DNA of 32,415 nt from Craspedostauros australis (lineage: Eukaryota): contig JALAGF010003737.1 of assembly GCA_030167865.1 (NCBI GenBank), positions 1-32,415 of the forward strand, written 5' to 3'. Positions 1,514-24,377 of the stretch are shown one piece after another. Made by a program: the position numbers and the translations under genes. Below the pieces are notes generated by a model. The model made no database searches. It was given only the letters and a program-made list of their open reading frames with translations, and was not told the origin of the DNA. Numbering within the stretch: the stretch's first letter is position 1; the number at the start of each line of letters is the position of its first letter.

Positions 1514-2004
1514 GCGCGTCGCAGATGCAACGCAATGGAGGGGTTACCGCGACACTGAGAATGACGTTGTCTCAGATCTTGGGAAGACGAGGGCGTTGCA
1601 TGTCTGTCTGGACAGCACCCTCCGCGCTTCCGTGATCTGGACACTGACGACAGTGCGACATGCTCTATAAAATAATAGAATAGAACATAATGTGATGCCA
1701 TATCTGCGATGCAAAAATAAATGAAATGAAAAATGTTACAAATGTAATAGAATAGCTCTGAGTACTTGTACACAACTCTACAGTTTCCTTCTGCTCCACG
1801 ATGATGGTCCACACCGACACAGTATACTCTATAACTCCAACACACAGTTTTTCGGATGAGGATGATCGCATTGCTTCTGTATCGTCGCCAAGAAACCTCA
1901 TTCATCCACCACCGCCGACGCCCGACGACAACACACTCCCTGCCCTTGCGCGTTCAGTTGTTCGATCCTTCTTCTGATTTGATGCACGATAACGCGCGTC
2001 GTTT

Positions 2005-2664
2005 TCAAAACGTGAAGAAATAGAATTGTTCTCCGTTCTCGTCGAACAGATCTCTCGGATTGGGCCACCGCAGGATCGTGGACAGAGCCGAATCCTTGTG
2101 GACGTCCTGCGTTTCGCAAGGCGCGGCTGCTTTGCGGCAGCAGGGACATGCCAACCGAACGCGCAGCCATCGTTGCAGACAGTGCTTATGAAAAATGGAC
2201 TGGCAGCAGTTGCTGAATTTGACGAGGTCCTTCGCATCGTGTTCCAAGCATATGGCGCAGCAGATCGTTCTGGTGCGACTGTCATCGCAATTCTGTGCGG
2301 CGTACGGCTGCGGGAAGTTGCCGTGCCGTCTCACGATGTCGTCCTGAGAGCTGTCGTCATCGTCGTCGCTTTCGATGCGCAGCACTTGCGCGCGCGAGAG
2401 CAAGCTGCCCGCCATCGCGTATTCGTCCTCGAAGATCCAGCCGTTCTCTCCCAGGTTGTTGGGCTGGAAGCACCATCGGCAGATGGTTCCGACCACGAAC
2501 AGCACGGTTTCGAGGACGAGGAAGACGAGCACGATGGCGAAGATGGAACCCGAAAATGAGATGTGCATGATGGTCTCCTCATCGTGGGAGCTGTCGCAGG
2601 TCGCCGATGGCTGGAATGGGAGGCTTTCCAGCTGGCGGAAGAAGGATGGGAGAAACAAGCTCAT
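2005..2664 (-). CDS. Transmembrane RING-finger protein (ATL/RING-H2-like E3 ubiquitin ligase), 219 aa
   Basis: N-terminal TM helix (IFAIVLVFLVLETVLFVVGTI), an acidic linker, then CAICLE-x-CCQSIFHKHCLQRWL-x-CPCCR, the RING pattern including the conserved W and CPxCR. Confidence 0.8.
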   Translation of the reverse strand: MSLFLPSFFRQLESLPFQPSATCDSSHDEETIMHISFSGSIFAIVLVFLVLETVLFVVGTICRWCFQPNNLGENGWIFEDEYAMAGSLLSRAQVLRIESDDDDDSSQDDIVRRHGNFPQPYAAQNCDDSRTRTICCAICLEHDAKDLVKFSNCCQSIFHKHCLQRWLRVRLACPCCRKAAAPCETQDVHKDSALSTILRWPNPRDLFDENGEQFYFFTF

Positions 2665-3617
2665 GCTTGTTCTGCTGGTTGTTGTGGTGGCTGCTTCAGT
2701 TTCGATTTGTTCTGTGGTATCGTATTCTAATATGAAGTATAATATAGTATGATATGTACGACGACAGCAAGATGAGGAAGGCAGATGGCAATGTGGTTCC
2801 TTGGTACTGTTGCTTCTGGAATTGCTTCTTCTGTCTCTGCTCTTGAGAGTACGACAATGAATGATCTTGCTCCAGATGCTGTCGATGGAACGGAGACTGA
2901 CGGATGATGTCTTTGAGATGTGGGGGCCCTCATTGGCATGACATCAACGCTTTCGCAAAAGCCACAACGGGGATGATGGGGCGAGAAGAGGCGAAGATCG
3001 GCACAACAACATCAGCACCAACAAAGCAGAAGAAAGATCCCACAGAATTTGGGCGTCATCGACACAACAGAGAAAGAAACGATGTGTTTCTTCGTCTTGG
3101 GTGACTGCGAACAGCTGCCGCGCCCGTCGACCAATCAAAATGTCAGCTGTCAGTGTAAATGAGAACTCAATTGCGCAGTGATTCCCATCAGCGCCGACAC
3201 ATGGGAGAAGTGAAGCTTTTTCAACAGAGCTTTCCACCACTTCTGCTGTCGTCAATCATCAATGCCACCTCTTGCTCTGGCCTCTGGTTGGATCGATCGC
3301 CCGCAATGGTTTGATCCATTTCCTCCGCAAGCACGAGCTAGTCTCATGTGATGGGATGTCACTGCAAATCGCGCGCATGTCATCCAAACAAAACATATTC
3401 CTCCCATGTTCATGGACATGAATTGCACAAACTTATGACCCATTATATTTCCTATCCAGAGGTCGAAGACCCATGGATGGAAGGACCCACCCAGTCTCTC
3501 TCTCTCTCTTCATGGCGGGTGGCATGTTGAATGCAAAATGGAGCAGTCGCCCAGAGGCATGATCTGTGGATGCGCCCAAAAGGAAGTCAAAGCGAATCGC
3601 ACGCGCAAAGCTGGCGC

Positions 3618-3626
3618 AAAATGAAA
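3618..3626 (-). terminator. Possible Pol III terminator (TTTCATTTT) directly after the tRNA 5' half
   Basis: A T3-CA-T4 run follows A37 on the minus strand. T4 is the minimal Pol III terminator and may be leaky. Confidence 0.4.
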
Positions 3627-3703
3627 TCGTAGTCAGACGCCTTGCCGTTGGGCCAACAGGTCATCACAAACCTGCCCGGGATTCGAACCCGGAATCTTCT
3701 GAT
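3627..3703 (-). tRNA. trnR-ACG: Circularly permuted tRNA-Arg(ACG): 3' half 3703-3668, 5-nt spacer 3667-3663, 5' half 3662-3627
   Basis: Minus strand reads ATCAGA-AGATT-CCGGG-TTCGAAT-CCCGG-GCAGGTT-T / gtgat / GACCTGT-TG-GCCC-AACGGCA-AGGC-G-TCTGA-CT-ACG-A. Swapping the halves gives a complete 72-nt cloverleaf: acceptor GACCTGT/GCAGGTT (7 bp including 2 G-U), D stem GCC/GGC with the GG dinucleotide, anticodon stem TCTGA/TCAGA, loop CT-ACG-AA, T stem CCGGG/CCCGG with TTCGAAT. No missing half in normal order is visible on either flank. Confidence 0.9.
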
Positions 3704-3726
3704 GTCAGCTTGTTGCCTTTGCGAGT

Positions 3727-3750
3727 AAAATTTAAATTTAATTACATTAT
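3727..3750 (-). promoter_or_regulatory. AT-rich TATA-like element upstream of the permuted tRNA
   Basis: Minus strand ATAATGTAATTAAATTTAAATTTT (23 of 24 nt are A/T) sits 24-47 nt upstream of the tRNA 3' half, in otherwise mixed-composition DNA. CAACAA (3715-3710) follows as a possible Pol III start motif. Confidence 0.5.
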
Positions 3751-4494
3751 TGACATGCTCCAGCATCATTCATTCCAACCCACATCGCTTTCTTGCGCTA
3801 CATACCACACATCTCCGGCGTTAACTTCTTCAACCTCCATATCCTGCGTCACACAAACACGACAGGACATTGCTATCGTTCTGGAGGAGAATTACGCAGT
3901 GCTGGATTGCGATCGCTGCAACACCATCATCGCACAGTGCATGACAACGACACAGTGCAACGCATCACGTCAGCGCGATGCCCACCGTCTGTTGAGATGG
4001 TGCGAACGCAATCGGGATTCACGCAGACGTTTGTGGTGGTTGCCATGCGGTGAGATCCAACCCAAGCTGAAAGCTCTGCGCAGTGTGATGAAATGGACGT
4101 GCGATTGTGGACGCATCGCATGCGAAACTCATGTCCACAACTGGGGGGCTTCGTTCGGCCGCAATCTGCCATTCAATCCGACCAAAGCCACCAGCGTTTC
4201 CGTGGATCTGGGCTGGTTTAGACAAACCACTCTAACCATTCTTGTGGCATCAATCAATTTTCATCAACTCGAGACCCATATCTTCCAACGTCTTATGCAT
4301 CCGTCTGACCTCTGTACGCTCTTGGTCTCCACAAACCAACAAAAAATGGCGCCAAACCGGAAAGCGAACAATCTGATCCAAAACAGATGAACACCAACTT
4401 GTGATGCCACTTTCGACGGCAACAAACAGAGGTCCAAAGGAAAGTCAGAGTTGCGTTGCATTGCACCATTGAGACGAAGACGCCTGGATTAACG

Positions 4495-6922
4495 ATGGAT
4501 TCCACACGCGCAAATCGCGATGGCACCACGAAGAAACGCCGCCGTCGCGGACGCAGCGCAGAAGACAAGTTGAAATGTGCGCAATCCTCCACGCATTGCG
4601 ATGGAGCATCCTCCAAACGAAAGCGGCCCACCAAAGCTCCTCCATCTCAAGACGCCATCGATCTATCGCGGCGACTCAAGGCACTGTCGCAGCAGAAGAA
4701 GCTGAGTGAAGCCTTGCGCGCCTTTGACGCGTCCCTCTCGATCGTCGATGAATACCATCTCTGCAGCATCATCGATTGCTGTTCGCGATGTGGGGATATC
4801 GCATCGGCGGAGCGCATCATGAAGGAGGCCGTGGCCGCCAAGAGGAAGATCAACGTGGAGTGTCGCACGGCGTTGTTGAAGGGATACTGTCATTCGGGGC
4901 ATATGGACAAGGCCATTGGCGTCTTTCGGTCCATGTGCGATGCAAAAAGTGAGTGGAGTGTATGTGTGTGTGTGTTGGATGGAGTGGAATGGAATGGAAT
5001 AAAGTGAAAGGACATGAAGTGAAATGAAAGGAAATGAAATTAAATCATGAGGGAACTGGGTTGCATCTTGCATATGTCAGCGGGCGCACGTCTGGTGCCA
5101 CAAACCTTCTCGCGTGTGTCCACTTCATTTCGTAGCCAACGACCAACCTTGCCAATGCATGCCGATACGCACCGCTCTGCCATTCCCGCCCCCGACGTCA
5201 ACAGTCAAACGCGACAAACCCAATCTGCGAACGCTCAACACCTTCCTGCGGGGATGCATGTGGACAGCAACAACGCTGCACAAGGATGCGCGAGATGGTT
5301 CGGCGTCGCTCTCCGGCGGAGTCAGCGCCAGCGAGACTGCGTGGGATCTGTATCAGCACCACAACTGCTTCCCGCCATTTGATGCATCATCGTACGAGTA
5401 CTGCGTCACGGTGCTATGCCAGGCGATGCAATTGGACAAGGCATCCAAGCGCATTCATGAGCTGGAACAGCTTTCCACGTCGCTGCAACACGCAACGAAT
5501 CCGCAACCGGCCCAGCAGCGCAAGCGGGAGGCTCTGGGAATGTGCTACCTCAGTCTGGCCAGTTCTCACGCGTTGGCCGAGAACCCGGATGACGCCATCA
5601 AGGCGGCGCGGCAGGCCATCGTATCGGCCCAAGCTTCGCGCAAGATTCTCAAACAAATGTCCGATGACCTTGCCTCCACGGCGACGCCCGACCGACGATC
5701 CGAATCCAACGAGATCTTCCGCGTGCATCGGCTGACATCGATCGAGGACGACGCGCGCGTCATCATCCGGCGATGCAAGCCCATCGCGCCGCGATGTCTC
5801 TCGCGGTTGCTTCTGACGCGCGTTCTGTTTGTGAGCGGCGGCGGCACGACGTCCATGCACAACGCACAACAAGGCCACGACTTGCAACAGCAGCTTGTCA
5901 ATGCGGCGTTCTTCAGTTTCGGATTGCAGTCGGCCTTGCGCAAGTTGGATGTCACGATCCAACACAGCAGCGGTTCGCAGTATGTTCCGCTCAAACGAAA
6001 AGAGTGCAATCGCATTCTGGGTGCGGTCGGGTTGCAAGGCGGTATCATCGGCAGCGATGGCGCGATCGACTTTGCAAAGCTCTTTTCAAAGGGTCTTGGC
6101 GATGATGCCAGATCCAAATCCAAGAAGATTCCTTTGGATTTGGAGTTGGGTGCCGGATTCGGTGAATGGATCGTGCATCGCGCCCACAAAAATCCCAAGC
6201 GCAACCATGTAGCGGTCGAGTTGCGCGCCGATCGTGTCGGCAAGATCCTGCATCGTGCCTTTTTGGCAGACAGCAGCAGCGATGGCACCGCGCCGGAATC
6301 CAACCGATTGCCACACAATATCTGCGTGGTGGGCGCGGAAAGCGGAATGTTCTTGCGCCAGCTGGTCAAAAATGGCACCGTCTCCAACATCTTCGTCAAT
6401 CATCCGGAGCCACCAACCCAAACGTACGGAGTGGATGTCACGAATTTGGAAGAGATCATGTCCGGCGACAATGCAGAACCAGCACACATGCTGAATAGTT
6501 CCATGTTGCGCGCTGCTGCCGAATGCCTGCGGGAGTCCAAGCATTCCAGAATTGCCATCGTGACGGACAACAAGTGGTACGGGCGGCTCATCTGCGCGAC
6601 CTTCGTCAAGTTGCTGCGTCAATTCCCGAACCTGTTGATTTGCATGCAGTTGGACAACGAGGTCCATCCGAACGTGAGAGTTACCGAGACCTTCGGCGGT
6701 GGTGGCAGCAAAGGTGTGACCGCGGCCACGGTATCGCTTTTCGAAAGCGAGACTGGGCTTTCCTTTGATGATGCAACAACGAAGGATGTCGGCAGCAACG
6801 GCAACGCAAGCAACGGCACGAGCTACTTTGACCGTCTGTGGCAATCTGGAGGCGGGAGTCATGCAGAACAAACCACAAGGTATTTCATCGTCATGCAGCG
6901 CAACTTCTCCAAATCAAACTAA
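4495..6922 (+). CDS. PPR-TGM protein: pentatricopeptide repeats fused to a TrmB-like tRNA (guanine-N7)-methyltransferase domain; exons 4495-4948 and 5205-6922
   Basis: PPR motifs: DEYHLCSIIDCCSRCGDIASAERIM, NVECRTALLKGYCHSGHMDKAIGVFRSM, PNLRTLNTFLRGC. Phase-1 intron 4949-5204 (GTGAGT...ACAG) joins DAK-I-KRDKP in frame. The C-terminal region has TrmB motifs LDLELGAGFGEW, NPKRNHVAVELRADRV, IFVNHPEPP and IVTDNKWY. Confidence 0.85.
4961..5045 (+). repeat. Intronic (TG)n run plus degenerate GGAAT/GAAAT pentamer repeats
   Basis: tatgtgtgtgtgtg followed by ggagtggaatggaatggaat...gaaatgaaaggaaatgaaat inside the PPR-TGM intron. Confidence 0.6.
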
Positions 6923-7036
6923 AGGGTGCCCATGAAACAACTACAGACAAGGTGATGCCGCACTTGCAATGCGGCAAAGTCGACCGTCCATACAATTCCA
7001 TGTACCTATCTACTATTACCTTCTGCGTGATGGGCT

Positions 7037-10000
7037 CTACACATTTTCGTCCCCCTTCTCGACGCCGTCCACCCACAGTTCCTGGGACGTTGCGTAGTTA
7101 CCCGACTCGCTGTCATCGCAGTCCATTCCAGACACCAGCGACCTCTGACTCTTCTCATCCATGACCTCGGCGGTCAATTCGACGATGGTTTCCAAAGCTG
7201 CTGAGTGGCGCTTGTTTGAGCCGTGCGCGGAGTTCCGTGGCGATGAAGTCTCGCTTCCCTCTTGTTCGTCGCCGTCGGTGCCATTGTCGCCACCTTCCTC
7301 CTCCTCGTGGTCTTCCGCACCCTCCCGTTCGACCCAGAACAGCGTCATCTCTCCCTTCCCCTTGATGTTGAAATCGCCTCGTCGCTTGATGTTGAATCCC
7401 TCCGGTGAATCCAATTCGAGAAGGCTCGCCGTGACCTCCGAACACTGGATCCTTCCTGGCAGCGAGTTGCTCTCCATCCTGGATGCGGTGTTGACTGTGT
7501 CACCGATGATCGAGTAGCGTGGGTTGCGCGTTCCCACCACGTGAGCAACTGCTGGACCCGTGTTGAAACCGCTGCGGATTTCGACGAATCCGCGGGACGG
7601 CTGATCTTCGTCAATCAGCGTGGTTTTAGCAGCATCGACCGCATCCATGGCGAATGCCACCATCCTTGATACGTGAGCTGGGTCCTTCTTGTGGATGTTC
7701 GTCACCGTCATGTACGAATCGCCAACCGTCTCCACCTTGAACACATCGTGGATGTCGCAAAGGTTGTCGAATTTGGTGTAGAGACGATCCAGCAGGCTGG
7801 AAACCTTGGTGGGCGAAAGACCGGAAGAGATCTTTGTGTAGTCGACGATGTCGGAAAAGTAGACGGTGACGGAATCGTGCTGCTCTGGTTCCACCTTCCG
7901 GCCTTCGCGCAAGGCGGTTGCGATGTGTGCCGGGAAGAGCTGCGAGAGGAGGTCTTCCGCGGATCGTTTCTTGCCGTTGGGAGCCTCCCCTGTGCCGAAT
8001 CTCCGATCGCTGGTCGCCACACGGATGTGGTCCGCATCCAGCATTTCGAGCCGGACGCTGATTTCTTCCGCTGTTGGACGCAGCGTCGGATCCTCGCGCA
8101 GGCATGCCTTCATGAGCTGGACGGATTCGCTGGAAAGACCTTTTGGGACGGTCGGGCGTTTCTGGATCTTGGCGTCGGCGACCAGCTGAAGCACCGCATC
8201 GAGTGATTCGCCTTCGTACGGGTCCTTGCGCGTGAGGACCTCGTACAGAACGACACCGAATGCGTACACATCGGACGTCGTCGTGTTGCCGGTTTCGCGT
8301 CGCAGCAGTTCCGGCGCCATCCAATACGGCGTTCCGGCGGCGGCTGCCTTGTCCTGGAAGAAGTAGCGCTTGCGAGACAGGCCGAAATCGGAGACCTTGG
8401 CGTGGAAACGCTCATCGACCAGCACGTTGGCTGCCTTCAGATCGGAATGGATGATCTGCGGCGCGGCGGCATGCAGGAAGCGCAACCCGCGAGCGACGTC
8501 TCGTAGGACGGGGAGCAATATTTCTCCGTTCAGCACCATGGAGTCGTTGTGGAGGAGATCGTACAGCGACCCCAGCTGCATGTGCTCCATAATCAGCATG
8601 GGCTCGCTGCACTTGTCAATCACAGCTCCCATCGTCGTTGTGATGCAGGGATGTCGGAGCTGGGAGAGGAGCCGCATCTCCTGGATGAACTCTCGCTCCA
8701 TCCTCTTCGTGGATGCGCTGCCGAGCGACCCAAATATGTCCTTGAATTTGGACGTTCTTCGCCTTGGTGTGTGGTCACGAGCCACAGATGACATGGAAGA
8801 TAATGCCAGCAGATCTCCCGTTGATCCCCGATTGGTTCTGGAATGTGAGCCATCCATGCGTGACGACGATGAAGAGGAGACCGAAGACACGCCGGAGCTG
8901 CGGCGGATCAACTTGGCTTGAAATTTTGCGGATGCCGTCGAGTCCTTCCCGAGGGAATGCAACGACTGCTGATCGTCAGCACCCGAGGCATCATCGGTGG
9001 AGTTTGCGCTATCTTGAAGTTCGAGGTTCGGCTCGTTCGGTTGTTTGGAAGAAGCGCTCATGCGCATTTCCAACTTGGCCAGTGCCAGGCTGTCGTCATC
9101 GAAATCGAACTTCAGCGAGGCACGACGATTCAGGTTGCGAGCATGTCTGCCAACCGGGAGCACGCGTTTCACGGCCACCTTGGTACCGCGGTACTCCGCC
9201 AGCAGGACCATGCCGAATGTGCCACGTCCCAGCACCTGGGGAGGTTCGCCGTAGATCAGCTCCTTGGGATCGACCTTCCAGATCGCGTCAGCTGCCTTGC
9301 GTTTGTGCTCGACGTACACTAGGACGGCAATTCCCATCATGAGAAGCGTTGGAAGTACAACGGACGGGATGAAGATGGAGTAGGGGACGCAGACTCCGAA
9401 CAGCTCGACGGTGACGGTCGTTTGGCACACGCATTTTCCCGTGCTGGTGGGGATCATGTACGCATCACCTGTGGCGGCGACGCAGTCCCGTTCGTCGATT
9501 TGCAGACGGAACGGACTATCGGGAACCTGCTCCTCATCCACTCGGACGAAGACGATGTGCTCTCCCGTGTCGATGTTGGTGTCCTTCACAACCACCTGGT
9601 ATTCATGCGGCCTGGATGGCACGGGGTCCATGGTGTATCTCATGCCAACGTCGCCGTCGAGGACTTCGACTGACAGGACGACGTCGTTCCGTCTTCGGTT
9701 GTCGATGGCGTAGTACACGATGTAGTCGTTCTGTGACACGTAGCCGCATATGTCGAACTTTTCGCACCCTGATCCAGTTCGGATGGTGGAATTGTTGGCG
9801 GCCAGGGCCAGGTCGATGTCATCATCCTTCCTAACGTCAGTGAGGACCGGGAAGAAGTCGACGTCGGAGGCCTTGACGCAAGGTTTGCACAGGCAGGAAA
9901 AGCCGTGACAGTCCAAGTTCGCATCCTCGCAACCGCGTGTCATGTCTTCCTTGGATTTCGGAAAGTGACCGGCGGGGCAGGTGACACCGTCGGCCAGACC

Positions 10001-11347
10001 TTCTGTGCGAATGCACTTGTGGTCCTTTGTGAGGAAGGCGAGGTTCGTCTGCATGTTGTGGATCTCCATGTAGGATGCCGTTGGCGCGAAACCTGCTACG
10101 TTTGCCTGGGTGAGAGCGAAGTGTGCGGCCAGGGCTTGGAGCAAGGTCGTGTCGCATCGTCGGAAGGGCACAGAGCCCAGTTGCTGCTCCTGAAGGTCGT
10201 GCAGCTCATACATGCACTGCTCGTGGCAGGATGTCAGCTGTGTGGACAGCGCGTTGATCTTGTGCGTGTCGCGAAGCGGATCGCAGGCGGATCGTTCAAA
10301 GCACGCCAGCAGGGACGGGGCGATCGCCGCGTGCTGGGAAATCTGCAGGATGGCCTCTTGCACCGCCTCCACGATGTCGTTGGAGACGTGGCTGAAGGCC
10401 GAGAAGCCCCATTCTGGGTAGAGGTGCGTCGACGATGGGTACGGGAAGAGGTTGCCGTTGACGTCGATGAGCGGAGGGCTGGTGCCGTCCTCGGCGGTCG
10501 TGCCGAACTCTCCCAAGATGTGCACCTCGGACATATCCACCAAGTTGCCGGTGCGCTCGTCGATGGTGCGCTCCAGCTGACCTGTGCGCACGTATCCCAC
10601 CTCGATCTTGCCCTGCAGCACGGCGTTGACGACGTTCGGCTGCTTCTCCATGAAGACGACCTGAGCGACGTCCTGGAGGTGGTGGATGTCGCGCATGATG
10701 AGCTCTCGGAACTGGAGCTGCCCTGCTCCGAAGGCCTCGAGGGCCACGCAGGCCGTCGTTCGGTCGCGAACGTCCTCGATGTCCCGGATCTCGCCTGCCT
10801 TGTCCTTGGCGGTGAAGAGGACGCCACCGTACTGGTTGAGCTCGAACGTCTGTCCTTGCAGTTCGCTTGTGGACGTGACGGTTGCCAAGGAGCGCACGCC
10901 GACCTCGCTTTCCATGCAGGAATGGGCGCCCGTGTGCATGAGCATGAAGTCCAATTCGTTGGACGCCAGGAAGTCGAGGAATCCCTCCTCGCTGTTGAAG
11001 ATGGGGACGAGCTCGAAGCTGATCTTCCTGCTGTCGTCACTTGTATCTCCAATTGAAGTGGACGGGACGTCAGCGAACTGAGGCGAGACGTACATCTCGA
11101 AGTATTCCTGGAAGATGGCTGTGAAGTCCTCCGTGGCCTGTTGGGCACCGCGGATGCCAAACGCGCCCACCTTGTAGACGGTGGCTGAATGCTTGGCCGA
11201 TCTCATGGATGGTGACTGGCTGATGCTGAGCGGTCGCACGGGAATGGGCTTCGACGGAAGGGAGCATTGCTGAGCGGACACCGCCCATGATGACATGGAT
11301 GATAGCATTGAAGCCACCGCGAAGATTGATGCCGTGACGGTCTGCAT
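7037..11347 (-). CDS. Receptor-type protein, 1436 aa: signal peptide, PhnD/phosphonate-binding-type periplasmic-binding fold, Cys-rich and filamin/Ig-like region, TM helix, TKL-type protein kinase, class III nucleotide (guanylate-like) cyclase
   Basis: Single long ORF. PBP-type motifs: VGAFGIRG, VGYVRTGQLE, LYPEWGFSA. Ig-like segment GEHIVFVRVDEEQVPDSPFRLQI. TM helix IFIPSVVLPTLLMMGIAVLVYV. Kinase motifs GRGTFG, VAVK, HSDLKAAN, DFG, GTPYWMAPE, DVYAFG. Cyclase motifs VTVYFSDIV, FKVETVGDSYM, GDTVNTASRMES, IKGKG. Confidence 0.93.
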   Translation of the reverse strand: MQTVTASIFAVASMLSSMSSWAVSAQQCSLPSKPIPVRPLSISQSPSMRSAKHSATVYKVGAFGIRGAQQATEDFTAIFQEYFEMYVSPQFADVPSTSIGDTSDDSRKISFELVPIFNSEEGFLDFLASNELDFMLMHTGAHSCMESEVGVRSLATVTSTSELQGQTFELNQYGGVLFTAKDKAGEIRDIEDVRDRTTACVALEAFGAGQLQFRELIMRDIHHLQDVAQVVFMEKQPNVVNAVLQGKIEVGYVRTGQLERTIDERTGNLVDMSEVHILGEFGTTAEDGTSPPLIDVNGNLFPYPSSTHLYPEWGFSAFSHVSNDIVEAVQEAILQISQHAAIAPSLLACFERSACDPLRDTHKINALSTQLTSCHEQCMYELHDLQEQQLGSVPFRRCDTTLLQALAAHFALTQANVAGFAPTASYMEIHNMQTNLAFLTKDHKCIRTEGLADGVTCPAGHFPKSKEDMTRGCEDANLDCHGFSCLCKPCVKASDVDFFPVLTDVRKDDDIDLALAANNSTIRTGSGCEKFDICGYVSQNDYIVYYAIDNRRRNDVVLSVEVLDGDVGMRYTMDPVPSRPHEYQVVVKDTNIDTGEHIVFVRVDEEQVPDSPFRLQIDERDCVAATGDAYMIPTSTGKCVCQTTVTVELFGVCVPYSIFIPSVVLPTLLMMGIAVLVYVEHKRKAADAIWKVDPKELIYGEPPQVLGRGTFGMVLLAEYRGTKVAVKRVLPVGRHARNLNRRASLKFDFDDDSLALAKLEMRMSASSKQPNEPNLELQDSANSTDDASGADDQQSLHSLGKDSTASAKFQAKLIRRSSGVSSVSSSSSSRMDGSHSRTNRGSTGDLLALSSMSSVARDHTPRRRTSKFKDIFGSLGSASTKRMEREFIQEMRLLSQLRHPCITTTMGAVIDKCSEPMLIMEHMQLGSLYDLLHNDSMVLNGEILLPVLRDVARGLRFLHAAAPQIIHSDLKAANVLVDERFHAKVSDFGLSRKRYFFQDKAAAAGTPYWMAPELLRRETGNTTTSDVYAFGVVLYEVLTRKDPYEGESLDAVLQLVADAKIQKRPTVPKGLSSESVQLMKACLREDPTLRPTAEEISVRLEMLDADHIRVATSDRRFGTGEAPNGKKRSAEDLLSQLFPAHIATALREGRKVEPEQHDSVTVYFSDIVDYTKISSGLSPTKVSSLLDRLYTKFDNLCDIHDVFKVETVGDSYMTVTNIHKKDPAHVSRMVAFAMDAVDAAKTTLIDEDQPSRGFVEIRSGFNTGPAVAHVVGTRNPRYSIIGDTVNTASRMESNSLPGRIQCSEVTASLLELDSPEGFNIKRRGDFNIKGKGEMTLFWVEREGAEDHEEEEGGDNGTDGDEQEGSETSSPRNSAHGSNKRHSAALETIVELTAEVMDEKSQRSLVSGMDCDDSESGNYATSQELWVDGVEKGDENV

Positions 11348-20650: not shown

Positions 20651-23600
20651 TCATCGATAACGCCGCAGCCTCGAGCCGGCTGATAGCCTCGCGGATCTCT
20701 GTTCAATTTGCTGCTGCTGTTGCTTCAACTCGGCCTGCTCCTTGGCAAGCGTTTCCTTCGTCAGGAACTTCTTGAATCGCTGCGTCACGATCGGTTGTCC
20801 CAGCAGCACCGCCAGACGTTTGCGGGCGCGTGTGGCCTCCACCTTCTGGGCCGGCGAGGTCTTGTGGTCATTGGCGTCAGTGTCCAGCATGTCCTCGTCC
20901 AGCTCGATGCCAGCCTCCTGGGCATTCTTGATGAACCACTGGTTGTTGCTCTGCTTCTTGCGTTCATCCTGATCGAACTGCAGAATCTTGGAGGCCAGGT
21001 TCGCGCGTTCTTGGGCTCCCGCGAGCAACCGACCATCGATGCGCAGAGTTTCGAATCGCACGCCGATCGATTCCAGAATCTTGGAGTGGGCCTTGTCTTC
21101 GGCTGGTGCGATCAAGGAGATGCTCGAGCCCACGGCGTTGGGTCCGACGCCGCGCTGTAGTTGTGTGGATGAGCAGATGGATTGCACATGCGTGGCATAA
21201 GTTCATTTGTGCGTCATGATGGTTGGTTCCAATCGATGAGACAGTGGCAATCCAGAGTAGAGCAGTGTAAGTTGTGTGCTTGGTAGGCAACGCATGGTGC
21301 GCGTACGCACAGCGCGATAATGCCTCAGACAGCCAAGGGAATTTTCTCCACATGTTCAGGCTACTACCCCTGATATAATTGTTTCGGAGACTCTAGTCCA
21401 AACTTCCATGTCTTCTTCATCGTCATACTAATACTCATTGAGCACAGGCATCGCATTGCATCGTGTTGTGTCACATTGTGGTTTGTACGTACCGCTGTTC
21501 GACCAGATCGATGGACGAATGTATCGACAGATCGTGCAATGTCGTAGTGAACGACAGAGGAAACGCTTGGGATGTCCAAACCGCGTGCTGCGACGTCTGT
21601 GCAAACGACGACCGCATTTTGGATGGACTTTTGCAAGGATTCGACGGCTCGAAGTCTCGCTTTCTGTGTACGTGTATTGGAATAAAGATAGGGAGCGAGA
21701 GAGAGAAGGAGATGGAGTGGATGAGCGTGGTGAGATTGTGTGTACCCAATGGAAGGATCAAGCATTGCCACGCGCCTCGTTGCTGTCGTTGATATGCTCA
21801 GAGATTGTTCACTATTGGTACCTTCATCGTAAGACAAACACCAACGTGAGACGAACGAAAGGACACAGCGGACGGGACCATTTTGATCACCATCGTTTGC
21901 ATCGCATTTGCTCGCGAATCCCGTTGGTGCTTGTACACCAATGCTCATGTGAAAGAGTTGGACTAAGGGAACCTGTGTTTTCTTCCTCACCGCATACGCC
22001 TGCAGACACAATGAACCAGAGTAAAATGGACCGACTCGACATGGAGTGCAACGGAATGACACGAAGGTGACGTACCTGTTGCATGTTGGCGTGCAGTTGC
22101 CGCACGGGAACACCCAACTTTTGCAAGGTGGCACCCACGCGGCGTACGCCGGCAATGGAGTTGCAAAAGACGAGACACGGTCCGGCACGTCCTTCCTGCG
22201 TTGTGACGAGGTAGGCATACAGATGCGAGTCCTTGTGTCGTTGCGTGCACTTGATATGTTGCAAACGCAAGCCTGGCGGCAGACGCGTGGTGGAGGCGAT
22301 GTGTCGCAGGTTGGCCGTATTGGTGCTGCTGCCGTCGGTGGTGGTGGTCAAATCCACGATCTTCGTTTCGCCGAACACCTTGACCTTCTTGAGGATCTCA
22401 GCGATGGGACCTTCGACTGTTTTGGATTTCGATCGGTGGTTTTGCTTCTGTTTCTTCTTGGACTTGGTGGCGGTTCGTGGCAAGGTCAACGTGGCCGAGT
22501 AGATGAAGGTCTGGCGTTTGACTCGGTTGGCTGATGGGAGCATGTCCATCTCATCGTACTCGACGTCGTTGTCCTCATCTTGCTCACCGTACTGGTCCTC
22601 ATCAAGCTCGCGGATCTCGCCGCTGGTCTCACCGCGTTGTTTGCTGATTTGGGCGAGGATGTCAGGTGAGAGCATCTCGAGCTTGGCTTCGCCACGGATA
22701 CCTGGCAAGGACGGGAGGAAGGCAGTGCCATCCTCATCATCCTCGTCATCGCTGTAGTCTTCATCGATGTCATCCTCCGCGGGATTGGCATCGTGGATAC
22801 GTTGCAGGATCTTCAAGAGCTGCGGGAAGCAATGGTCTTGTGCCATGCGATCCGCCTGTGTGCGTTGTGACAGTGGTTGTGGCGGTGGTTGTGGCGGTGA
22901 TTGGGTGGAAGTGAGGGAACAAGAAGGCAAGGCTAGGCATGTCAGTGAAGAGTCCCAATGCTCTGACGAATCAAAAGAAAAGGAACAGATAGAGATAAGG
23001 CTGAAGCGCTCAGGCCGCCACAACACTCATTGATCACTTACCTCGTCCAAAACAAGGAACTTGAGATGGTCCAATTGATTGACGTGATCGACCGTGGCAT
23101 CCGACATCTGTTGTTGGCGTGAGACAAAATAAAGTGCGTTTGTACGCATGAGTGATTGAGCGTGTGAGTGAGTTCGTCTCTGCATGTGTGTGCAACAGCC
23201 TTTGCAGGAGACATCAAGCAAATCGCAAGTGAGCAATGGCTCCATTTTCACTTGTGCGACGAGTTTCGTTTCGTTTCCATTCGCTTCATCTCATTTGATT
23301 TTCGTTTCATGCTTCCGACTGACGTGCAATTCGAATATAAATCGTCACAAGAATGCACGTAAATACATCTTCGGACGTTTGTGTATTTTGGATATATTCT
23401 TTTTCTTCACTAGCATTGCGATGCCTTGCAAGCGCACGTACCATGGCCCATAGTCGACCGGGCGTCCCGACAATGATATTGGGCTTCGCCTTGAGCAATC
23501 GCTTCTGCTTCACGACGGCGATACCGCCCACGAGACAGGCGCAGTCCTTGGCCTTCGTCAGCAGCTTCTGACATTCGCGTTGAATCTGCATGGCCAGCTC

Positions 23601-24377
23601 GCGCGTCGGCGTGATGATGAGGGCCGTGACGCCGTCGGTGGGATCGTCGTCGCAGAGAATGTGCTGCAGGATGGGCAGCAGGAAGGCCAGCGTCTTGCCA
23701 GAGCCCGTGGGTGCCGCGCCGACCAGATTGCGCTGTCCCAAGATGGATGCCGACAGCGTTGCGCATTGGATGGGCGTCGGCGATGTGTAGTCATGCTGGT
23801 GCAGATGGGAGCACAGTCGTTCGTGCAAGACGACGCCGCCCGTGGAGTTCATCCAGTTGGATTGGATCTGCTGGATGTCCTCCTCTGACGGCGGTTGTTC
23901 CTCGCTGTCGCTGGTTGGTGGAGCATGCTGCGGTTGCTTCTTCTGTGGCTTGGACTTGGAAGATGACGAGGAGGACGCGCCATCCTCCTCTGCCGAGGGA
24001 GCCTGCTTGTCCTTCTTCTTTTTCTTCTTGCGTTTCTTCTTTGAGCATTCCTCCCCTTCCTTCGCAGCCTCGTCCTCGTCAACACCGTCCTGCTGCTGCT
24101 GCTGCTGATGCGGCTGCTCCTTGATCACAAGCTTCTTGATGGAGTCTGACGTCTCCACCAATTCGTACTGATCCGAGGACAGGACCTCCAGCCCGTAGAA
24201 CATGGCGATGTCCTCACCGGGCTGGACGGGCAGATCATCGTTGGCAACGCGCTGCAGCTTGGGATTGTCATAGTGATTGTCGCTCTCCTTGCCGCTGCTC
24301 TGCTTGGTGGGCAGCTCGACCGACACGGAGGTCCATGGTGCGTCCTCCAGTGGACGGCGTTTGCGTTTGTTGGGCAT
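20651..24377 (-). CDS. DDX24: DEAD-box RNA helicase DDX24/Mak5-like, about 818 aa; exons 24377-23442, 23107-23042, 22855-22076, 21663-21493, 21154-20651
   Basis: Motifs: Q (YTSPTPIQ), I (APTGSGKT), Ia (TPTRELA), Ib (GTPGRL), II split by an intron (LVLDE|ADRM), III (SAT), IV (LVFCNS), LHANMQQ|KARL, V ([11 protein letters not shown]), VI (HRSGRTA|R). Four phase-0 GT-AG introns keep the frame. The acidic insert between motifs II and III and the K-rich N-terminus fit the DDX24/Mak5 subfamily. Confidence 0.88.

Follow-up and report, generated by a model that had tools for sequence, protein, structure and literature searches.

How might a tRNA whose 3′ half is encoded ahead of its 5′ half be recognized, cut and re-joined by a eukaryotic splicing machinery? 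This question is raised by a locus on contig JALAGF010003737.1 of the diatom Craspedostauros australis (assembly GCA_030167865.1), which we analyzed over positions 1 to 32,415; this whole stretch of 32,415 nt is referred to here as the window. A first-pass annotation, made from the letters alone, had proposed that the leader and trailer of a permuted tRNA at this locus resemble a split intron, held by an A-I pair and a distal flanking helix rather than by a strict bulge-helix-bulge (BHB). Comparison with related metagenomic loci leads us to a modified answer: the locus is probably a type II (37/38) circularly permuted nuclear diatom tRNA-Arg(ACG) gene, processed via a relaxed BHB, with the enzymatic steps, the transcript ends and the circular intermediate as predicted parts of that reading.

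Gene order and recognition of the permuted locus

The locus presents the type II order of permuted tRNA genes, with the 3′ half upstream of the 5′ half on the same strand and a short spacer between them (Table 1). When the halves are swapped by script, ARAGORN calls a tRNA-Arg(acg) with a canonical cloverleaf and a 7-nt anticodon loop; in the native window, neither ARAGORN nor Rfam at its gathering threshold reports any match at the locus. The junction is placed at 37/38 because no other split gives the loop CUACGAA. Since the spacer comprises only 5 nt, there is no room for a signal between the halves, and in related loci the spacer varies in both length and sequence, from 5 to about 20 nt. 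No other T-loop motifs were found in the window.

Table 1. Features of the permuted tRNA-Arg(ACG) locus in window coordinates
Feature	Position	Strand	Basis and remarks
Permuted tRNA-Arg(ACG) gene	3703-3627	minus	Halves inverted in order, break at 37/38
TATA-like, AT-rich stretch ahead of the 3′ half, probably a Pol III upstream promoter element	3727..3750 (-24 to -47 from A38)	minus	Sequence; probable function by analogy with PMC3978253, sections 4, 5
Proximal leader, likely in the RNA: CAACAAGCUGAC	3704..3715	minus	G-3 (3706):C32, G-6 (3709):C35, A-7/A-8 (3710/3711):U+2/U+3
3′ splice site (predicted)	between 3704 and 3703	minus	
3′ half, positions 38-73: A38, anticodon-stem 3′ strand, variable loop, T arm, acceptor 3′ strand, U73	3668..3703	minus	ARAGORN after half swap, alignment stems, T-loop motif
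T-loop motif	3679-3689	minus	
Spacer GUGAU (GTGAT in DNA) between discriminator and G1	3663..3667	minus	Sequence; predicted to be removed by RNase P/RNase Z after circularization
5′ half, G1-A37: acceptor 5′ strand, D arm, anticodon-stem 5′ strand, loop C32 U33 A34 C35 G36 A37	3627..3662	minus	Sequence, ARAGORN after swap, alignment
Trailer UUUCAUUUU	3618..3626	minus	U+1 bulged with G36 and A37; U+2/U+3:A-7/A-8
T4 run, probable Pol III terminator	3621-3618 (+6..+9)	minus	
Downstream DNA with CAGCT and TTGCG arms, most likely outside the functional precursor	3604..3617	minus	Marginal against shuffles, not conserved, past the T-run

Relatives of the gene were collected in one metagenome scan for an anticodon-stem 3′ strand lying 45-75 nt ahead of an anticodon-arm 5′ strand. 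The scan returned 32 loci, from which L001, L014 and L026 were dropped as chance matches, since inspection revealed no T arm or acceptor. The remaining 29 scanned loci hold 32 copies; the window brings the total to 33 copies, of which 29 are distinct (28 besides the window). In all 29 distinct loci the break lies at 37/38, so that the 3′ half contains A38 and the 5′ half carries a purine at position 37. All four cloverleaf stems are 100% paired in the 28 aligned sequences (18 and 10, respectively, for the two junction registers defined below, R1 and R2), and both-sided changes occur in the T, acceptor and D stems across the alignments. The 400-nt flanks of the metagenome loci match the window only in the tRNA itself and contain no convincing coding frames.

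Some of these contigs carry more than one copy. Two permuted tRNA-Arg(ACG) copies lie in tandem on one strand in each of L017, L019 and L030, their starts separated by about 521, 178 and 129 nt, respectively, and in L030 the trailer of one copy passes directly into the leader region of the other. L005 likewise carries a second permuted tRNA-Arg copy (L005:173-240, minus strand), apparently in decay, without the T-stem 5′ strand and the T loop; it retains G-3 and the outer helix of the junction, with G:C as its first outer pair against A:T in the intact copy. Two features of the acceptor end are unusual for an arginine tRNA. The first acceptor pair (window 3669/3662; columns 49/71 of alignment A1) is G1.U72 in 14/18 R1 and 9/10 R2 sequences, the remainder having G1:C72, and the discriminator is U in most aligned copies.

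The conservation of the gene across loci bears directly on whether it is functional. In favor of a functionless locus, be it a dead rearrangement product (such as what is left of a tandem pair of tRNA genes) or an artefact of assembly, the contigs of one public run (X1, its kind a guess; share 0.22), which over positions 2000-7000 cover 2000-2922 and 3303-3519, include none of the tRNA locus, and decaying copies do exist, as the second copy on L005 without a T arm attests. Such an origin is nevertheless very improbable, given that 29 distinct loci keep the cloverleaf intact, show compensatory changes in its stems, and have the break, the TATA-like box and the T-run at fixed places. On the minus strand, the contig part at 3303-3519 comes shortly after the tRNA and includes a (GA)n run near position 3500.

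When its thresholds are relaxed, Rfam yields at the locus only a T-arm fragment of the tRNA model and a sub-threshold match to YrlA (3632-3700, minus strand; 18.9 bits, E 0.11). This best match, weak as it is, might suggest a tRNA-like RNA that is never re-joined, acting as a Y-RNA-like mimic or a regulatory RNA. The tRNA-like domain of YrlA has its parts in the matching order of T arm, acceptor and D arm, and it is only this order that the score, far under the gathering score of 69, reflects; in contrast, the locus retains both halves of the anticodon stem, the ACG anticodon and a purine at position 37, and we give this alternative the least credence of those considered.

The genes that surround the locus are of several kinds. 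A 274-aa frame with a GTG start and no Pfam match (3566-4390, plus strand) overlaps the tRNA gene on the opposite strand, but an in-frame ATG at 3941 suggests that a gene here, if real, has its start downstream of the tRNA, which would then lie in a divergent intergenic region. At a distance of 1.4 kb from the permuted tRNA, a gene of tRNA-modification type (5114-6922, plus strand) encodes a protein with a TrmB-type (tRNA m7G46) methyltransferase domain, which in its diatom relatives is preceded by pentatricopeptide repeats. A 1436-aa frame (7037-11347, minus strand) combines periplasmic phosphonate-binding-type, protein kinase and adenylate/guanylate cyclase domains, and a DEAD-box helicase is encoded at 23307-24377. 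The best named matches of the methyltransferase-domain and helicase proteins are all from raphid pennate and other diatoms (Nitzschia, Cylindrotheca, Fistulifera, Mayamaea) at 39-48% identity, followed for the helicase by oomycetes, which places the window in a diatom.

The predicted splice junction in the window and in related loci

The leader of the window locus, read on the minus strand, ends in ...CTCGCAAAGGCAACAAGCTGAC (3725-3704), directly ahead of A38 (3703); A37 (3627) is the last base of the 5′ half, past which the sequence continues as TTTCATTTTGCGCCAGCTTTGCG (3626-3604). The first-pass annotation had these strings and coordinates right, including the third-last leader base, a G (3706) facing C32 (3632). 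The A-I pair, reportedly defined by Baldi et al. in 1992 as 32:-3, is thus represented by C32 and G-3, next to a 3-nt bulge that holds the predicted 3′ splice site. Taken over its whole length, the junction offers the pairs C32:G-3, C35:G-6, U+2:A-7 and U+3:A-8, with mismatches at U33.U-4 and A34.C-5. The two outer pairs (U+2:A-7 at 3625/3710 and U+3:A-8 at 3624/3711), which had gone unremarked, sit at the expected start of the outer helix of a BHB. A strict archaeal hBHBh′ motif, with a 4-bp central helix between two 3-nt bulges, is not present in the window, where only 2/4 central positions pair, in agreement with what had been reported at first. At -6..-3 the window reads GCTG, whereas its closest relatives, L019 and L030, both likewise with A37, read GTTG. 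Within the window a lone G at -3 is a 1-in-4 event, and its weight therefore derives only from the comparison with other loci.

For this comparison, loci were anchored at the splice sites and assigned individually to register R1 or R2 by maximizing pairs. A G able to pair with C32 is present in all 29 distinct loci, at -3 in 18 (including the window) and at -4 in the other 11, so that the proposal passed on the very point that had been named beforehand as able to refute it, the conservation of this G. Because the register is picked by pair count, the 18/18 obtained for C32:G-3 in R1 is partly circular; what holds without this bias is that G occupies one, and only one, of the positions -3 and -4 in 29/29 loci.

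In R1 (18/29 loci, including the window), the central positions pair in 18/18 (C32:G-3), 13/18 (U33:A-4), 4/18 (A34:N-5) and 9/18 (C35:G-6) cases. A 3-nt bulge (G36, R37, N+1) separates this central helix from the outer one, in which +2:-7 is paired in 17/18 loci through five pair types (AU 6, CG 4, UA 4, UG 2, GU 1) and the following positions in 14/18 (+3:-8), 12/18 (+4:-9) and 8/18 (+5:-10). In R2 (11/29 loci, 10 of them with enough trailer), GTAG or GTGG at -7..-4 pairs with C32-C35 in 40/40 cells, and the outer pair +2:-8 is formed in 10/10 loci through four pair types. The R2 loci therefore do have the 4 bp of the strict hBHBh′, but their 3′ bulge spans 4 nt (-3, -2, -1, A38), and the strict cut rule is not fitted by these 11 loci. 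L004 (R1) and L029 (R2) share an unusual long spacer, which makes them close relatives that stand one bulge nucleotide apart.

The pairing between leader and trailer is specific to each locus. Swapping trailers among loci gave 44.2 ± 5.0 pairs against 74/112 observed, with 0/5000 swaps as high, and after collapsing near-duplicates to 23 combinations the first two outer positions pair in 38/46 cases against 18.7 ± 3.2 (0/10000), counts that overstate independence because the loci are mutually related. Sliding the leader by 1-3 nt lowers the observed pair count to 34-50, and the whole-structure covariation score is 0.201 in R1 (against 0.089 ± 0.011) and 0.204 in R2 (against 0.093 ± 0.015). At least three Watson-Crick pair types occur at the first outer position in each register, and the pairing therefore does not reflect one inherited change.

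Since the C32-pairing G is conserved and the outer helix covaries, the flanks are predicted to form a relaxed BHB that keeps to the register of a canonical intron. The predicted geometry is exactly that of the canonical 37/38 BHB, with position 32 opposite -3, a bulge at 36-37-(+1) and an outer helix running from +2:-7. The original suggestion that leader and trailer act as the ends of a canonical 37/38 intron would is borne out by the conserved G and this register. The companion suggestion of an A-I pair in place of a BHB survives in part: the C32 pair is there, but what the family displays is a relaxed BHB with a covarying outer helix and not an A-I pair alone.

Folding energies paint a less favorable picture. 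Adding the junction pairs changes the energy by -8.0 to +6.8 kcal/mol over 28 loci, with a negative value in only 6/28, and in the window the four junction pairs cost +6.8 kcal/mol, the worst of the 28. The cloverleaf-constrained fold of the window leaves the flanks unpaired, and the fold of the 105-nt terminated precursor forms the four arms with open flanks (z +0.24). Thermodynamic prediction being mostly unfavorable, the case for the junction rests on covariation and not on energy. Judged by its predicted pairs, the window is the weakest member of the junction family, yet a conforming one. Such reliance on comparison is usual for eukaryotic pre-tRNAs, which are described in PMC4090602 as lacking a clear local motif.

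These data also bear on an archaeal or Cyanidioschyzon-style mode of processing, in which the endonuclease would read the BHB alone and the mature domain would be irrelevant. The covarying outer helix would suit this mode, as would the 11 R2 loci, with their perfect 4-pair central helix (as counted in the 10 aligned) and 3-nt 5′ bulge. The window, however, combines its two central pairs with a 2-bp A:U outer helix and the unfavorable energy given above, and A34 is paired in only 4/18 R1 loci. The 4-nt 3′ bulge of R2 counts against this mode as well, because a symmetric cut rule would there give an 8-nt anticodon loop. Moreover, the junction always lies at 37/38, the sole place that a eukaryotic ruler enzyme can reach according to section 8 of PMC3978253. 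We therefore regard recognition of the BHB alone as unlikely.

Probable transcript limits and the distal helix

An upstream TATA-like element and a downstream T-stretch are both present, as sequence features, and recur across the family. Among 28 loci with 60 nt of upstream sequence, the AT fraction reaches 0.82-0.93 at -39..-36 and the TATA-like peak extends over -42..-36, with T in 18/28 loci at -39, A in 17/28 at -38, and T in 17/28 at both -37 and -36. Downstream, a run of at least four T starts at or before +7 in 19/28 loci and at or before +14 in 25/28; TTTT occurs within +1..+12 in 19/28 loci, against 0/28 in the last 12 leader bases and 7/27 further downstream. A later T-run does not go along with a longer outer helix (Spearman -0.01). 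Strings that contain CAA (e.g. CAACAAG, CATCAAG) appear at about -13..-7 in many loci, as seen by eye and left uncounted, and the window carries CAACAAG at -12..-6. In plant Pol III genes the TATA box lies about 25-30 nt before the start, and initiation takes place in CAA motifs. The positions of the TATA-like box and the CAA motif therefore predict a leader of roughly 8-12 nt. Algal permuted tRNA genes likewise have a TATA-like box and a T-stretch (PMC3978253, sections 4, 5).

These limits are of consequence for the distal helix that the first-pass annotation had drawn between the flanks, from AGCTG/CAGCT (3710-3706/3613-3609) and CGCAA/TTGCG (3723-3719/3608-3604). The complementarity is real, but it amounts to no more than chance. 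The duplex between 30 leader nucleotides and the trailer past the T-run, has -19.4 kcal/mol, a value that 55 and 42 of 1000 dinucleotide shuffles attained, as did a fraction of 0.027 of 300 in a second shuffle test at the same locus. Across the family, a distal duplex attains p ≤ 0.05 in 1/27 loci (the window only), about the chance expectation, and own pairs are at -9.20 kcal/mol against -8.95 kcal/mol for swapped pairs (n = 698). The fold of the 131-nt read-through RNA does use CGCAAAG/CUUUGCG, but it loses the anticodon stem (MFE -42.9, z -1.76, 13/200 shuffles as good). Given the TATA-like peak at -42..-36, the distal leader arm is probably upstream of the transcription start. We conclude that the distal helix, as predicted from these arms, is a product of chance. 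The covariation expected of the flanks is found in the proximal outer helix and not in the distal one, which is not conserved.

A clamped precursor would nonetheless be conceivable if transcription read through the T4 run, in which case a long-range helix (AGCUG/CAGCU plus CGCAA/UUGCG, or CGCAAAG/CUUUGCG) could hold leader and trailer together while a lone A-I pair and a ruler set the cuts. Four T make a short terminator, and both the 131-nt fold and the -19.4 kcal/mol duplex, matched by 42-55 of 1000 shuffles, lend this scheme some appeal. Against it, that fold comes at the expense of the anticodon stem, a single locus has a significant distal duplex, own and swapped partners barely differ in energy, and the position of the T-run is recurrent across loci. 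The leader arm (-20..-16) would moreover lie between the TATA-like box and the likely start, and AGCUG would take up G-3 and A-7, which pair conservedly elsewhere. We hold such read-through to be quite improbable, and a short precursor that ends at the T-run is adopted in what follows.

Proposed processing and relation to known systems

In the proposed pathway, RNA polymerase III would start a few nt downstream of the TATA-like box, about 8-12 nt before A38, transcribe the 3′ half, the 5-nt spacer and the 5′ half in that order, and stop at the T4 run 6-9 nt past A37. The tRNA body would then fold, with the anticodon stem joining the short leader and trailer as two stubs of a canonical intron. 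The 3′ cut site would lie in a bulge of three nucleotides (A-2, C-1, A38), bounded by C32:G-3 on one side and the anticodon stem on the other, next to an imperfect central helix, and the 5′ cut site in a 3-nt bulge (G36, A37, U+1) closed by U+2:A-7 and U+3:A-8. Both sites would be cut by the tRNA splicing endonuclease, and tRNA ligase would link A37 to A38, generating a circle that RNase P and RNase Z would open at the acceptor stem, with CCA added and A34 deaminated to inosine. Ruler-type recognition of the substrate is plausible, and the occurrence of 3-nt and 4-nt 3′ bulges at an unchanged distance from the anticodon stem would offer it circumstantial support.

Permuted tRNA genes are known, according to PMC3978253, from red algae, green algae, a single nucleomorph and a single archaeon, and the 34 genes in Table 1 of that review do not include Arg(ACG). 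Its section 8 describes type II, hBH junctions for green-algal permuted tRNAs, and by its predicted pairing the present junction is of this kind. The closest counterparts are the type II genes of Ostreococcus, Micromonas and the Bigelowiella natans nucleomorph (Maruyama et al. 2010, as cited in PMC3978253), which share the 37/38 junction and an AT-rich upstream region and have a relaxed hBH motif suited to a eukaryotic endonuclease, as predicted here; their spacers are given there as 5-64 bp, against 5 bp here. Unlike these genes as PMC3978253 presents them, the present locus has a diatom host and the Arg(ACG) identity, and its family shows a covarying outer helix and a 3′ bulge in two registers, of 3 or 4 nt. 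The permuted genes of Cyanidioschyzon merolae (Soma et al. 2007, 2013, as cited in PMC3978253) have in common with the diatom locus the TATA-like box and the T-stretch, and form a BHB between leader and trailer, as is predicted for the diatom locus. In that alga the circular intermediate was demonstrated by experiment, and the review reports junctions at 20/21, 37/38, 50/51 and 59/60, various BHB types and some extra introns, in contrast to the sole 37/38 junction and absence of an intron here.

Two better-known classes of substrate complete the comparison. An ordinary eukaryotic intron-containing pre-tRNA with an A-I pair likewise has C32 opposite the third-last nucleotide before the 3′ splice site, a 3-nt bulge, an imperfect central helix and cuts at 37/38; unlike in such a pre-tRNA, the "intron" is open here, its ends are the transcript's own 5′ and 3′ ends, and ligation would circularize the RNA. 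A-I pairs and the ruler are mentioned in general terms in section 8 of PMC3978253 and in PMC4090602. The archaeal hBHBh′ motif and the permuted and split tRNAs of archaea (Thermofilum pendens, Nanoarchaeum) also show two bulges around a 4-position helix, flanking helices and pairing flanks of separate pieces, but differ in that the central helix of the window is 2/4 paired, that 11/29 loci have a 4-nt 3′ bulge and that archaeal permuted genes break at 59/60. The literature searched, which includes passages of PMC13578239, PMC12633428, 10.1101/2021.12.21.473619, PMC8450103 and PMC4033280, mentions no permuted tRNA in a diatom or stramenopile and no permuted Arg(ACG); Maruyama et al. 2010 and Soma et al. 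2007 with their supplements, which lie outside that search, may list further lineages.

The identity of the tRNA gives the locus a wider significance. With A34 deaminated, the anticodon of a tRNA-Arg(ACG) is read as ICG and decodes CGU, CGC and CGA, three codons for arginine. Because ARAGORN and Rfam are silent at the locus, annotation based solely on tools of this type could give the impression that a genome lacks this decoder. To our knowledge, the 29 loci provide the first covariation-based picture of a permuted-tRNA junction. More tentatively, diatoms, and also the uncultured eukaryotes from which the 28 metagenome loci derive, might obtain the tRNA that reads CGU, CGC and CGA solely from a permuted gene unseen by standard annotation; in the same speculative vein, the 3-nt and 4-nt bulge forms, found even in the close relatives L004 and L029, would show that a eukaryotic endonuclease positions the 3′ cut by its distance to the anticodon stem instead of using the central helix, even when the substrate is open and has two ends. 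With this locus, the known range of circularly permuted tRNA genes would reach a stramenopile, and its family would supply, in the natural 3-nt and 4-nt bulge variants, test material for the choice of cut site by eukaryotic tRNA splicing endonucleases.
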